64,000 nt of DNA. Source: Lachnospiraceae bacterium. GTDB lineage: Bacteria > Bacillota > Clostridia > Lachnospirales > Lachnospiraceae. Both the position numbers and the translations under genes were made by a program. The notes under the pieces are model-generated. The model was not told the origin of the DNA. It saw only the letters and a list, made by a program, of their open reading frames with translations, and did not search any database. Shown piece after piece: positions 50,158-58,242 of the stretch. The stretch covers positions 4,999 to 68,998 of the forward strand of contig JAAWNY010000001.1 of NCBI GenBank assembly GCA_022799175.1. The letters are read 5' to 3'. Each line of letters begins with the position of its first letter. The first letter of the stretch is position 1.

Positions 50158-51462
50158 ATGCAGCCGTATGCAGAGATGAGTACTGAGGAATTGCACGCGT
50201 TAAAGAAACAGTTATCCGTTCGCTACCGGGATTTTCAGGGAAAAGATTTGCGACTTGATATGTCCAGGGGAAAGCCCAGTGTGGATCAACTAGATCTTTC
50301 CATGGGGATGATGGATGTTTTGAGCAGTGATGATGATTTGACTTGTGATGATGGTACCGATTGCCGGAACTACGGTGTTCTGACAGGTATCGGGGAGGCG
50401 AAGGAATTGATCGGGGATATGATGGAGGTATCCCCGGACAATATTATAATATATGGAAACTCCAGTCTGAATGTGATGTTTGATACGGTGTCCCGTTCCA
50501 TGACCCATGGCGTGATGGGATGTACACCCTGGTGTAAGCTGGATCAGGTGAAGTTCTTATGTCCGGTGCCGGGATATGACCGCCATTTTGCCATCACAGA
50601 ATATTTTGGCATTGAAATGATCAGCGTACCTTTAACTGGAGAAGGCCCCGATATGGATATCGTGGAAAAATTGGTAGCTGAGGATGACAGCATTAAAGGA
50701 ATCTGGTGCGTACCGAAGTATTCGAATCCTACAGGCAACAGCTACTCCGATGTGACAGTCCGCCGTTTTGCCCGTTTAAAGCCGGCGGCACCGGATTTCA
50801 GAATCTACTGGGATAATGCATATGGAATTCATCACCTGTACGACTATGATCAGGATCATCTGATTGAGATTTTGGCCGAGTGTAAACGGGCCGGCAATCC
50901 GGATCTGGTATATAAGTTTTCATCCACTTCGAAAATCAGCTTTCCTGGTTCTGGTATCGCGGCCATTGCCACATCCCGCAACAATCTGGAGGATATCGAG
51001 AAGCAGCTGAAATTCCAGACGATTGGCCATGATAAGGTAAATCAGCTGCGTCATGTCCGCTTTTTTGGCGGTATTCATGGTATGGTAGAGCACATGCGGC
51101 TACATGCAGATATTATGCGTCCAAAGTTTGAAGCAGTAACCAGTACTTTGGAGAGAGAACTGGATGGTTTGGGGATTGCCAGCTGGACAAGTCCGAAAGG
51201 CGGTTATTTTATCTCTTTTGATGCCATGGAGGGCTGCGCAAAGGAGATTGTGGCACGTTGTAAAAAAGCAGGTTTGATCATGACGGGGGCTGGCGCTACT
51301 TACCCATATGGAAAGGACCCTCATGACAGTAATATCCGGATTGCTCCGTCTTACCCGCCTCTTGAGGATCTGATTTTAGCCATGGAACTTTTTGCCCTTT
51401 GTGTCAAGATTGTCAGTATCAATAAAATTTTGGCTGACAGAAAAGCAAAGGGAGAGATTTAA
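50158..51462 (+). CDS. PLP-dependent aminotransferase (class I/II fold, aspartate aminotransferase-like)
   Basis: LDMSRGKP, VPKYSNPTG, YWDNAY, STSKISF and IRIAPSYP motifs; promoter TTGTAA-17-TAGAAT at 50087-50115. Confidence 0.88.
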   Translation: MQPYAEMSTEELHALKKQLSVRYRDFQGKDLRLDMSRGKPSVDQLDLSMGMMDVLSSDDDLTCDDGTDCRNYGVLTGIGEAKELIGDMMEVSPDNIIIYGNSSLNVMFDTVSRSMTHGVMGCTPWCKLDQVKFLCPVPGYDRHFAITEYFGIEMISVPLTGEGPDMDIVEKLVAEDDSIKGIWCVPKYSNPTGNSYSDVTVRRFARLKPAAPDFRIYWDNAYGIHHLYDYDQDHLIEILAECKRAGNPDLVYKFSSTSKISFPGSGIAAIATSRNNLEDIEKQLKFQTIGHDKVNQLRHVRFFGGIHGMVEHMRLHADIMRPKFEAVTSTLERELDGLGIASWTSPKGGYFISFDAMEGCAKEIVARCKKAGLIMTGAGATYPYGKDPHDSNIRIAPSYPPLEDLILAMELFALCVKIVSINKILADRKAKGEI

Positions 51463-51485
51463 ATTCCCATTTTTGCCTATTTTTT

Positions 51486-51653
51486 GAGGTGTTATAAAAT
51501 AAGTCGTCAGCCATTTCCCTATCTTGTGTTGGCACAATTCACGTACCCTGTCGGATATTAATGGATAAAGTCCACCAATATCCGACAGGGTATTCGTGAA
51601 CAGCTGGACATGAGATACGTGAAATGGCTGATGGCTTATTTTGCAAGACCTCC
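51486..51653 (+). ncRNA. 168-nt rod-shaped palindromic element (candidate structured RNA or repeat element)
   Basis: About 38-bp outer stem, internal loop, 22-bp inner stem; G-U pairs favour the plus strand. Confidence 0.5.
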
Positions 51654-51715
51654 TCTTTACTTTTTTTTATTCCTGCCCTATAATACAATAGACTGTGCAA
51701 AGGAGAAGCTCTGAA

Positions 51716-52144
51716 ATGAAGCAATTAGGGAATCAGTGGAAAGCAAAGCTGATCAATTATGAAACGATTTCTTATTTAATTTTTGGCGTGTTGACGACGT
51801 TGACCGATTGGATTAGCTATGGAGTCATGACCCGCTACGGGAATGTGGATTATCGGGTTGCTACGGCAGGAGCATGGGCGGCGGCAGTACTGTTTGCCTT
51901 TGTAACGAACAAGCTGTTTGTATTTCAAAGCCGGAACTTCAGTCTCGGAAAGGTATGGGAAGAATGGATACCATTTGTGACCTGCCGGGTAGCCACAGGT
52001 CTGTTTACTTTGGCGGCTATGATGGCGATGGTAGATGGAATCGGTATTCAGCAAGATCTTATCTGCAAAGTGGTGGTGTCGGGAATTTCCCTGGTGATGA
52101 ATTATGTTTTAAGTAAATGGTTTGTGTTCAGAAAGGCATCGTAA
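51716..52144 (+). CDS. GtrA family flippase-like membrane protein
   Basis: YLIFGVLTT, FAFVTNKLFVF and NYVLSKWFVF motifs; promoter TTTACT-17-TATAAT at 51656-51684. Confidence 0.9.
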   Translation: MKQLGNQWKAKLINYETISYLIFGVLTTLTDWISYGVMTRYGNVDYRVATAGAWAAAVLFAFVTNKLFVFQSRNFSLGKVWEEWIPFVTCRVATGLFTLAAMMAMVDGIGIQQDLICKVVVSGISLVMNYVLSKWFVFRKAS

Positions 52145-55002: not shown

Positions 55003-56382
55003 ATGAAGTTATGGGGCGGACGTTTTACAAAAGAGGAGAATCAACTGGTGCATAATTTTAATGAATCTCTGTCCTTTGATCGGAAGTTTTACCGGCAGGA
55101 CATCGAAGGAAGCATTGCTCATGTGACTATGCTGGGAAAACAGGGAATTGTGTCAAAGAAAGATCAGGAGGCGATTGTCAACGGCCTGAAGGGGATTCTT
55201 GCAGATTTGGAATCGGGAAAACTAGAATTTACAAATGAACATGAAGATATCCATTCTTTTGTGGAAGCAAATCTGATTCAGAGAATCGGAGAGGCGGGCA
55301 AACGGCTGCATACCGGACGCAGCCGAAACGACCAGGTAGCACTGGATATGAAGCTGTATTGTTGGGACGAGCTGGGGGAGATGGATGGACTGGTAAAGGC
55401 GCTGCTGGAAAATCTACTGGCCATCATGGAAGAAAACCTGGATACCTATATGCCTGGTTTTACTCATCTGCAGAAAGCGCAGCCAATCACACTGGCACAC
55501 CATATCGGCGCTTATTTTGAGATGTTTTCCCGGGATCGGAGCCGCTTACATGATATTCGGGAACGGATGGATACTTGCCCATTGGGGGCTGGCGCTCTGG
55601 CGGGAACTACTTATCCTCTGGATCGGGATTACAGTGCCGCTTTGTTGGGTTTTGCCGGTCCAACCAGAAACAGCATCGATTCTGTGGCGGATCGGGATTA
55701 TGTGATTGAGCTTTTGTCAGCAATGTCGATTCTGATGATGCATCTGAGCCGCTTTAGTGAAGAGATCATTCTTTGGAACAGTAATGAGTACCAGTTTGTA
55801 GAAATTGATGATGCTTATAGCACGGGCAGCAGTATTATGCCACAAAAGAAAAACCCGGATATTGCAGAATTGGTTCGTGGCAAGACGGGAAGGGTATATG
55901 GAGCATTGGTGGCGCTGTTGACCACCATGAAGGGGCTTCCTCTTGCTTATAACAAAGACATGCAGGAGGATAAAGAGTTGACCTTTGATGCCATTGATAC
56001 GGTCAAAGGATGTCTTGTTTTGTTTACGGGCATGATTGCCACTATGACATTCCACAAAGATGTGATGGAGTCAAGTGCAAAAAATGGTTTTACCAACGCC
56101 ACAGACGTCGCGGACTACCTGGTAGGACATGGGGTGCCATTTCGCGACGCCCATGGAATTGTGGGACAATTGGTGCTTCGCTGCTTAGAGAGGGGAATTG
56201 CTCTGGATGATTTGTCGCTGGAAGAGTTTCGTGCAATGAGTCCGGTGTTTGACGAGGATATTTATGAGTCCATCAGTATGAGGAATTGCGTTGAACGACG
56301 GAACATCATTGGTGCACCAGGGCAAAAAGCAATGAAACAGGTGATTGAAACATATAAAAAACAGCTTTTGGGCAACAATTAA
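55003..56382 (+). CDS. argH: Argininosuccinate lyase
   Basis: [26 protein letters not shown] and [12 protein letters not shown] motifs. Confidence 0.97.
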
Positions 56383-57128
56383 CGGACCAGAAATACTTCC
56401 ATTTTACGACTGCCATGTCTTAATGCCTGGAGATGGCTGTCATAATAGATATCGATATGTTTTCCGTTGACGCCGCTGCCACAATCTTCAGCCGTATAGA
56501 TCACTCCATTAATCATCAGTTTGGTGCCGTAGGGAATGACTCTTGGATCCACAGCAACGGTATGACCAGAGCGGGGAATGGCGCCAGTGCTGGTGCGTTT
56601 TCCCCATTTTCCGGAGCAATGGGAGCAGGGACAGTATCCGGTCGTGCGGAATATACCTAAGGAACGGGTGGCGGTGGCAGTTGCTGGCGATTCTGTCTCC
56701 GGAACCGATTCACTTTCTTTTTCTTGTGGAACCTCACCTTTGATATAAGACTGGGTATTGCCGAACTGTTTGCCGTCCACGGTGCCTTCGATTTGGTAGA
56801 TGCCGTCCGGCAGAGAGTCCCAGTCCATCCGGATTCGAAAACCATGCATTCCGTTGCCGATGCCGTTTTCTTTCAGATCGTTCCGGTAAACGGCAGCAGT
56901 GGGAGAAAAACTGCTGACTATCTGGGAGGTTGCCTTATTGGTAATGGTTACATGAACTGGGACTACCGTGTTTGGCTGGCTGGATTCCCACCCCCAGCCA
57001 ACAATCGTATTTCCCTCCATAGGGTCAAAGTATCCATCCAATGGCTCTGCAAAAGTAAGAATAGAGCCGCTTTGCAGCAGGATAGTTATTAATAGCAGGC
57101 ATGTCCATAAGAATTTGTTTTTTAACAT
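56379..57128 (-). CDS. Secreted 3D-domain (MltA-like lytic transglycosylase-type) protein with an N-terminal beta-rich domain
   Basis: Signal peptide; [10 protein letters not shown]...[12 protein letters not shown]...AEDCG...IDIY. Confidence 0.85.
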
Positions 57129-57207: not shown

Positions 57208-57406
57208 ATATGACCATGATTGTCATTGAAATAGCAAAGAGGGTATCGCAAAATTAATGTTATTTAGATTATGTAGTGACAAAGGGTACGCCAAAGAAAA
57301 GGGGCAAGAAGCAGCAAGAAATCGTTGGTTCCTTTTTCCGATTTCTTGCTATTTCTCACCCCTCTTCTTTGTCTGTGTTTCTCGTTTTCTTATCTAAATG
57401 ATGTTG

Positions 57407-57484
57407 ATCGCAAAATAAGCCATTCGCCATTTCCCGTATTTCAAGCCCGGAATACAGAAAATGGCGAATGGCTTATTTTGCGAT
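57407..57484. repeat. 78-nt palindrome related to the 51486-51653 element
   Basis: Perfect 26-bp inverted repeat ATCGCAAAATAAGCCATTCGCCATTT; 28 of 32 nt identical to the other element's arm. Confidence 0.8.
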
Positions 57485-57505
57485 ATTTTTTGCAGTTATA
57501 TTGTG

Positions 57506-58207
57506 TTATTGAACAGTAAATACTTCCTGAAGTTGTTTGCCGTGATTCATTGCTTCTTCGTGATTGTCATAGTAGATGTCGATATGCTCGCCGATTACAT
57601 TGGAGCCAATATCTTCTACTGTATAGACAATGTCGCCGATTATCAGGCGAGTGCCGATAGGAAATAGAGAAATATCAGCGGAAACGGTATGATTTGCCTG
57701 GGGGACTGTTCCGGAATAAGTCAGGCCAAAGCCGCCAGAACATTCATCGCAAGCACAATAACCGGTAGTGGTAAACATTCCCAAAGAAGCGCCTTTATTA
57801 ATTTGATTTTTATTCGTTACTTCTTTTATCGGGGAAGGCGCCGCTTTGCCATTTCCACAAGTAACGACTGGCGAACCGATGGAAGCGGAGGGAGAGTTAT
57901 GGGAAATACCAATAGTATCAACGTCTTGGGGACCTTCTGTTTTTTGTGGAGGTTGAGAGCTGACCGGACCACCGGAGACCGGCATGTCTGCGGATATGTA
58001 TGACTCGCCAGGTGCACTGGAAGCATGTATCATCCCGGTATCTTTGGAAATTTCACTGGCTTTTACATTTTGAATTGTACCATCAATTGCCATCCCTCCA
58101 CCAGGAACCTCAGCACCGAAAGCTGACAGTCCAAAGATAGTTACCCATAATAGTGTCATAATACTCATCGAAATAAAGCTTGTCTTATTAATTTTTAAAT
58201 GATACAT
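57506..58207 (-). CDS. Second secreted 3D-domain protein with a low-complexity linker
   Basis: Signal peptide; TTGYCACDEC...SADISLFPIGT...VEDIG...IDIYY; ATG at 58207 after gaggtg. Confidence 0.85.
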   Translation of the reverse strand: MYHLKINKTSFISMSIMTLLWVTIFGLSAFGAEVPGGGMAIDGTIQNVKASEISKDTGMIHASSAPGESYISADMPVSGGPVSSQPPQKTEGPQDVDTIGISHNSPSASIGSPVVTCGNGKAAPSPIKEVTNKNQINKGASLGMFTTTGYCACDECSGGFGLTYSGTVPQANHTVSADISLFPIGTRLIIGDIVYTVEDIGSNVIGEHIDIYYDNHEEAMNHGKQLQEVFTVQ

Positions 58208-58242
58208 ACGGATCACCTCACATTCTGGTATTTTCTATATCC

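Follow-up and report, generated by a model that had tools for sequence, protein, structure and literature searches.

The window analysed here is a stretch of 64,000 nucleotides (G000:C5:4999-68998) from G000, a 2.97-Mb, 122-contig MAG of an uncultured member of the Lachnospiraceae near Hungatella/Enterocloster. It contains two tandem paralogous genes for 3D-domain (cell-wall hydrolase-like) proteins, both on the minus strand, at 57506-58216 and 56379-57128, which have several near-identical short segments in common. A palindrome core lies in the gap between them at 57407-57484, with the minus strand as its sense strand. The transcript of the upstream 3D gene reads into this palindrome, the stop codon being 21 nt away, and a promoter-like site of the downstream 3D gene is located at 57158-57130. 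The arms of the palindrome (57407-57440 and 57451-57484) are 34 nt each and 94% complementary, and they enclose a 10-nt apex. As RNA, this copy was predicted to fold with -53.7 kcal/mol on the minus strand (z = -13.0) and with -50.1 kcal/mol on the plus strand (z = -10.9).

A second, longer palindrome, with the plus strand as its sense strand, was found at 51486-51652. It lies between an aspartate aminotransferase gene (50158-51462, plus strand), which ends 24 nt before it, and a gtrA-like gene, whose promoter-like site (51656-51684, plus strand, TTTACT-17-TATAAT) follows it directly. The 32-nt arms, 51486-51517 and 51621-51652, enclose 103 nt with a nested 22-bp hairpin (51544-51592). The predicted RNA fold of this copy reached -96.8 kcal/mol (z = -14.3), and no shuffled version folded as stably as the window palindromes. 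The initial annotation had described the two palindromes as sharing arms with 28 of 32 identical positions, both just past the 3' end of a gene. The two 32-mers indeed differ at 4 positions, and the distances of 24 nt and 21 nt from the stop codons agree with the described placement. Furthermore, the 22-nt arm core occurred 4 times in the window, against 0.04 occurrences expected from shuffles. We refer to this palindromic repeat as family A.

A nested MITE in the 3D gene gap

The extent of 57407-57484 initially assigned to the smaller palindrome proved too short. The outer left arm of this family-A element was found at 57234-57254 (GCAAAGAGGGTATCGCAAAAT), detached from the core by a previously unrecognised 152-nt insertion (57255-57406) that splits the outer arm. 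The remainder of the outer right arm lies at 57485-57493 (ATTTTTTGC) and shows only partial complementarity to the left outer arm. Strain contigs encoding an identical downstream 3D protein fell into two classes, 162 nt apart in length. The insert is present in the window and in L020, L022, L023, L024 and L026, and it is precisely absent from L021, L025 and L027. In the latter three, the outer left arm joins the core directly and lengthens the stem, which runs on outward as GCAAAGAGGGTATCGC... in this empty allele. The true family-A element therefore extends over about 57234-57493 minus the insert.

The insert itself, which the initial annotation had missed, is a classical MITE nested in the family-A copy; we refer to its family as family B. 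It derives by deletion from an element of ~307 nt and has inverted ends TAATGTTATTTAGAT... and ...ATCTAAATGATGTTG and a hairpin at 57292-57371. It is flanked on the plus strand by two copies of a 10-bp target-site duplication (TSD), ATCGCAAAAT, at 57245-57254 and 57407-57416; the sequence is single in the empty-site alleles, and its second copy is also the outermost part of the left arm as first drawn. Family B has an 18-nt terminal inverted repeat (TIR), CAATGTCATTTAGATAAG, and 10-bp TSDs at varied targets were seen at 4 other copies. TIRs, TSD and an empty-site allele, the marks of a classical MITE, were thus all observed for this family. These comparisons showed that the family-B insertion hit the outer arm of the family-A copy later, that it is polymorphic among strains and that it left the core hairpin intact. 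The insertion stands between the palindrome and the promoter region of the downstream 3D gene.

Family B was detected at ~175 loci in G000 (e.g., C64:7223-7531, C63:68664-68869 and C83:43278-43585). Its TIRs numbered 107 in G000 versus 1 in G010, the MAG of a sister species, so its expansion is limited to the G000 species. Seven other congeners carried a few family-B copies, all MITE-sized. No parent IS was found in the G000 MAG or in 50 congeners, and matches in the congeners were rejected as parents because they were MITE-sized too. One pair of TIRs 2 kb apart was considered as an autonomous copy and discarded, since it merely flanks an EamA transporter gene. Family B occurs at dozens of contig ends, indicating that it is a main cause of assembly breaks in G000. 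Families A (in the sister species) and B (in the G000 species) together account for many MAG contig breaks, and polymorphic family-B insertions could serve as strain markers.

About 9 of 37 family-A copies abut a family-B element. At G000:C107:3812-4020 and G000:C2:32843-33064, family-A arms occur with a family-B insertion, and G010 has family A alone at these places; both loci add to this tally. The TSDs of family B are varied in sequence, so specific targeting of family A was rejected; a mild preference of family B for terminator-side DNA is possible.

Copy number, anatomy and mobility of family A

We searched G000 with a profile of the arm and obtained 93 arms, which paired into 37 palindromic elements on many contigs. 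A covariance model found ~42 loci of 80 to 175 nt and scored the 57407-57484 copy at 74 bits (G000:C5:62398-62489). A chance pair of similar palindromes could be discarded on the basis of the 93 arm matches and the shuffle expectation in the window. These counts bear out the original suggestion of a dispersed, unnamed MITE/REP-like family, and they contradict the possibility, raised with it, that only the two copies exist.

The full-length form of family A is a near-perfect palindrome of ~171 nt, GAGGGTGTTGC AAAATAAG ... CTTATTTT GCAACACCCTC, the ends of which were set as GAGGGTGTTGC...GCAACACCCTC by identical young copies in G010. The size distribution was sharply bimodal, with copies of ~107-109 nt and of 168-174 nt (profile coordinates) and a few shorter ones. 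In the long class, the inner hairpin (CTGTCTGATATTGACGGA-TTT-TCCGTTAATATCAGAC) is conserved and has a small inverted unit (GTGTTCG-N-CGAACAC) on either side. One such unit is retained at the apex of the short class (~107 nt), in either orientation. The 57407-57484 copy, an internally deleted member, has undergone a further internal deletion and lost the apex too, which places it among the few copies below the short class. The cores are thus homologous, being nested internal deletions of one ~171-nt palindrome, and not interchangeable modules as the initial annotation had proposed. On both strands, the core stem is followed by TTATTTTG, giving a hairpin with a T-rich tract. The arm core AAAATAAG-N-GCCATTTC was conserved in sequence, beyond pairing alone.

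Several copies showed unusual arrangements. In a composite copy of 298 nt at G000:C63:64924-65221, the arms enclose ~190 nt of additional sequence. At L007:4063-4300 (G010:C67), a young full-length copy adjoins the right half of a copy that is older and diverged, which suggests insertion into or beside existing family members, in a BIME-like clustering. At G000:C91:41998-42104 (L123:999-1105), an NFACT-family gene ends within a family-A copy, with its stop codon in the right arm.

We also compared the element with Rfam 15. No match reached the gathering score; the only resemblances were to hairpins of the miRNA-precursor type, at 23-49 bits versus gathering scores of 64-99. A known RNA family was dismissed on this basis, as all matches were sub-threshold generic hairpins. 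The same resemblances bear on the proposal that family A yields a structured RNA that is processed, as a long double-stranded substrate of RNase III or as the precursor of a small RNA, and that regulates flanking mRNAs and does not terminate transcription. The ERIC/YPAL repeats of enterobacteria are presumed to act in this way, a long perfect RNA duplex is predicted for family A, and its sole Rfam resemblances are indeed long-hairpin precursors. However, these matches are generic and far below the gathering scores, and such a role would leave unexplained why relatives have terminators at exactly the same position (see below). We regard it as highly improbable.

The host range was narrow. G010, which shows 85-89% DNA identity to G000 in the flanking genes, contained about 70 loci, with 105 arms and 65 covariance-model strand-hits. 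A third species, G016, carried one genuine copy. Among the 51 species of the genus searched with the covariance model, the other 48 congeners lacked family A, and one genome each from 400 other Lachnospiraceae genera gave nothing above the control level. As far as these genomes indicate, family A is confined to two or three gut Lachnospiraceae species.

Five family-A loci (the two window copies, C69, C110 and C91) were checked among strains. Family A was present wherever a strain contig reached the site, and no empty-site allele was found at these loci, so that the family appears fixed within the G000 species. The initial annotation had named a second way in which its reading might fail, namely fixation across strains with no associated mobile gene, and in this respect the five loci agree with that description. 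At the long copy, the palindrome was found in all strain contigs that span the site (7 of 9; L014 breaks within the palindrome and L016 stops short of it). In a low-coverage strain contig, L141 (2115-2175), a 60-nt deletion inside the C91 element would extend the ORF from 583 to at least 653 residues; the palindrome may have led to an assembly artefact here.

The first report of neither TSD nor visible transposase for family A was upheld. No target-site duplication was found at the ends of four complete young G010 copies or in comparisons of filled with empty sites. A RAYT/Y1 transposase (PF01797) gave no match in G000 or G010 in a search that detects the family in 6 control genomes, and IS110-type transposases were likewise missing from both assemblies. 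RAYT/REPIN and IS110 drivers were therefore set aside, with the reservation that both carriers are incomplete drafts (MAGs of 91% and 95% completeness), that IS usually stay unassembled in such drafts, and that an enzyme may have escaped detection. In G000, no family-A arm pairs 0.6-6 kb apart enclosed an ORF, and the draft MAG held no repeats of 400 bp or longer, IS being usually unassembled there. Contig breaks in G010 fell at the apex of identical family-A palindromes and not at a longer element. An autonomous copy was not found in these draft assemblies, no arm pair enclosing a transposase. Integron attC-like sites, considered because they too are palindromes that vary in length and stand at the 3' ends of genes, were discarded by inspection: the copies are on scattered contigs, form no one-way array and have no GTTRRRY core. 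In the carrier genomes at hand, the mode of spread leaves no TSD, and no enzyme is visible.

Placement at terminator positions

Gene contexts were assigned with a simple greedy ORF caller. Family A lay between convergent genes at 20 of 36 loci (56%), compared to 14% of all gaps (p = 6e-9); 15 of the 36 loci were tandem and only one (3%) was divergent. Measured from the stop of an inward-reading gene, the element lay at a median distance of ~30 nt. At least 10 convergent gaps have no more than 40 nt left on either side of the element, and there is thus no room for another terminator. Family B served as a placement control: 31% of its loci were convergent, also an enrichment, 18% were divergent, showing no depletion, and the median distance from stops was 71 nt. 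Family A is thus more strictly placed than family B (p = 0.02 and 0.03). Placement at 3' ends is nevertheless also typical of purely selfish repeats, since insertions elsewhere are purged, and family B was likewise enriched in convergent gaps.

The orthologous gaps were compared at the long copy. In the gap between the aminotransferase and gtrA-like genes of G010, G041 and L031, family A is absent and ordinary terminator hairpins are found instead. The closest other species (L028; genome G041, with zero family-A arms) has the hairpin GAGCCGGAAC-aata-GTTCCGGCTC exactly at the place of the long palindrome, and G010 and L031 carry other conventional terminators. G041 and G010 conserve the gtrA promoter, and L031 has a recognisable form of it; all three lack the palindrome at this gap. 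Judging from these orthologous sites, the long copy is a gain in the lineage of the G000 species. Downstream of the aminotransferase gene (window 51463-51717 compared with L028, L031 and G010:C5:41194-41421), the native terminator hairpin had a wholly different sequence in each of the three related species, and the promoter 20-30 nt beyond it was conserved. The turnover of terminator hairpins at this gap seems very rapid in these alignments, even without family A.

The reverse comparison used ~40 family-A loci of G010 with their flanks as queries against G000, and ~20 of them were resolvable. Of these, 8-9 were common to G000, including the gap between the two 3D genes. At eight others (L002, L005, L154, L159, L161, L170, L173 and L185), G000 has a short unrelated hairpin with the same junctions, and the flanks are conserved right to the junction. 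Seven of these G000 hairpins are canonical terminators, and the hairpin at L185 is weak (-5.2 kcal/mol). The native hairpin missing from the filled sites measures 29-45 nt. Its absence where family A is present, with equal junctions, indicates that family A replaces the hairpin and is not added beside it. Gains specific to G000 or G010 numbered at least 9, and at the level of aligned loci family A was shown to substitute for terminator hairpins at at least nine orthologous sites.

These substitutions bear on the view that family A is a non-autonomous, purely selfish element of the MITE or REPIN type without any role for the host. In that case it would be merely tolerated at 3' ends, and the native terminator beside or beneath it would have been lost secondarily. 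The multiple copies and narrow lineage distribution, the identical young copies in G010, the lineage-specific gains and the convergent enrichment of a classical MITE family such as family B are all consistent with this view, and Croucher et al. argue likewise for pneumococcal repeats (PMC3049150). However, at least nine gaps contain no other terminator, so that the upstream gene would have none. In addition, old, diverged copies retain the stem, placement is stricter than for family B, and family A is fixed among strains at five loci. We therefore consider a purely selfish element unlikely, though a selfish origin and later co-option are mutually compatible.

The architecture of family A was also compared with that of intrinsic terminators. 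A scanner based on the terminator consensus calls neither window copy. This miss results from an apical loop or interior beyond its 3-8-nt limit, from its counting a maximum of 20 stem pairs, and from the mutual pairing of the A and U tracts. The stems of 30-60 bp are far longer than those of normal Firmicute terminators. The window copies thus lack the classical form, a short G+C-rich stem-loop followed by a U run, but they occupy the terminator position. In the predicted folds, the architecture resembles an oversized bidirectional terminator. The original idea of a recurrent RNA or DNA-hairpin signal fits this placement.

Taken together, we consider it probable that family A, a lineage-restricted repeat, is a SPRITE/REPIN-like interspersed palindrome that serves as a (bidirectional) terminator hairpin and spread by replacing terminator hairpins. 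Its termination or stabilisation activity, the selection at the RNA level and the mode of spread are what we infer from the observations above. In the predicted RNA, a hairpin of 30-60 bp would have its core stem flanked by an A-tract (AAAATAA) on one side and a U-tract (UUAUUUU) on the other, as in a bidirectional terminator. The hairpin would most likely end and/or stabilise the transcripts of the gene or genes reading in; at 57407-57484, the affected transcript would be that of the upstream 3D-domain gene on the minus strand. Family A would have multiplied in the ancestor of the two sister species and then again in each of them, and would have spread by taking the place of pre-existing terminator hairpins without generating a TSD.

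A more specific proposal concerns the spread itself. Family A may have been copied hairpin for hairpin into the place of an existing terminator, either by a structure-specific enzyme attacking terminator hairpins or by template switching or gene conversion primed by the A/T tracts common to all bidirectional terminators. We hold this to be rather improbable. If true, it would be a form of spread distinct from cut-or-copy transposition, and it would help explain why close species have wholly different native terminators at one locus.

Stem conservation and strand asymmetry

An alignment of 24 short-class copies showed 31 consensus pairs, with 94% of cells paired and double-sided changes at 20 pairs. 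Compensatory changes in a DNA palindrome can, however, arise by quasi-palindrome correction at the DNA level or by conversion between copies, without RNA function. At the gap between the 3D genes, G010 carries a full-length family-A copy, and ~6 of 13 arm positions differ between the two orthologous copies, yet every change is perfectly compensated. This pattern suggests that another subfamily converted the copy or was inserted there anew.

We then considered on which strand mismatches appear as G.U rather than A.C, as a way of telling constraint on the RNA from constraint on the DNA; the direction found was the predicted one. G.U mismatches favoured the sense strand in 11 of 15 tandem-context G000 copies (11:4) and in 18 of 22 G010 copies (18:4, p = 0.004), the latter set being only partly independent because 8-9 loci are common to G000. 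The per-copy bias in G000 was highly heterogeneous (chi-square 112, 37 df, p = 2e-9). Pooled counts were 197:98 for the sense strand (2.0:1); this ratio is similar in size to the sense-strand GC skew at four-fold degenerate sites in G000 (+0.245, G:C ~1.65:1, with a slightly negative TA skew), so that mutational bias may explain much of it and the G.U test is not decisive. The strong strand asymmetry of G000 has to be taken into account in strand-based tests of any kind in this genome. When the test was made by fold energy in G010, the sense preference was weak (12:9). In three tandem-context G000 copies, the antisense strand was more stable by fold energy, and four were discordant by mismatch counts; one discordant tandem context was checked and found to be real. 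Together, the stem and strand patterns suggest selection on family A at the RNA level.

The same data bear on a role of family A as DNA, in which a cruciform or hairpin site would be bound or cut by a trans-acting protein, as a nucleoid, gyrase or recombinase site of the kind proposed for REP/BIME. A trans-acting factor had been suggested in the initial annotation, young copies are near-perfect palindromes on both strands, and the arm core is conserved in sequence and not in pairing only. However, the fold energies of the two strands of one copy differ by up to 33 kcal/mol, and many old copies retain the hairpin on one strand only, which would destroy a symmetric cruciform. Moreover, no candidate protein co-occurs, Y1 and IS110 enzymes being absent from both assemblies, and the strict placement after stop codons would not be explained. 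We consider a DNA-level role very unlikely compared with a terminator hairpin.

Comparison with known repeats

Several dozen genes in the two species have no candidate terminator other than a family-A palindrome, and these palindromes escape simple terminator finders. The empty sites make the co-option of mobile repeats as terminators directly testable in gut Lachnospiraceae.

Compared to a classical MITE, family A is likewise short, multi-copy and non-coding and shows presence/absence differences between genomes, but it lacks a TSD. The Correia/NEMIS repeats of Neisseria and the ERIC/YPAL repeats of enterobacteria are palindromic intergenic repeats of 100-170 nt with full-length and internally deleted classes. 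They are co-transcribed with flanking genes, with reported effects on termination or mRNA stability, and Correia elements have a TA duplication and defined 26-bp TIRs. Family A resembles these repeats in its length and deletion classes, whereas it shows no duplication, occurs in another host phylum and is unrelated in sequence.

REP/REPIN elements, which are mobilised by RAYT (Y1) transposases, are similar to family A in being extragenic, in forming a long symmetric hairpin from two inverted halves and in lacking a TSD. Their copies also number from tens to hundreds, many of them at 3' ends or in convergent gaps, and are hit by other IS or MITEs, as family A is by family B. The palindromic units of REP/REPIN elements are recognised by a conserved 5'-terminal tetranucleotide, GTAG or CGTC (PMC3733652). 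The terminus of family A, GAGGGTGTTGC, has neither tag, and no Y1 transposase was found in either carrier assembly. In addition, the units of family A are far longer than 20-40 bp, and the host is a Firmicute. With no TSD (unlike a MITE) and with neither RAYT nor tag (unlike REP/REPIN), family A is filed as a terminator-like interspersed palindromic repeat.

Among described repeats, SPRITE of Streptococcus pneumoniae comes closest to family A; it is present in 30 copies and consists of an oversized terminator-like hairpin and a T-rich tract (PMC3049150). Half of its copies (15/30) lie between convergent genes near 3' ends, the strongest such enrichment among pneumococcal repeats; no TSD was established and no IS with matching ends was found (PMC3049150). 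SPRITE is restricted to its species and the nearest relative and was proposed to have been co-opted as a terminator (PMC3049150). Family A thus shares with SPRITE tens of copies (~42 versus 30), a hairpin with a T-rich tract, enrichment in convergent gaps, the lack of an established TSD and of a visible IS with matching ends, and a narrow host range. The host families differ, and no sequence relationship is expected; the likeness is one of kind only. SPRITE is AT-rich and forms an 18-bp duplex with a long U-rich tail, whereas family A is a symmetric palindrome of 30-60 bp with A/T tracts inside the stem and two sharp size classes. Furthermore, empty sites were not found for SPRITE (PMC3049150), whereas those of family A were found and showed that an ordinary terminator hairpin had been replaced. 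Family A is therefore distinguished from the known systems by its very long symmetric stems, its two size classes and the documented replacement of native terminator hairpins.
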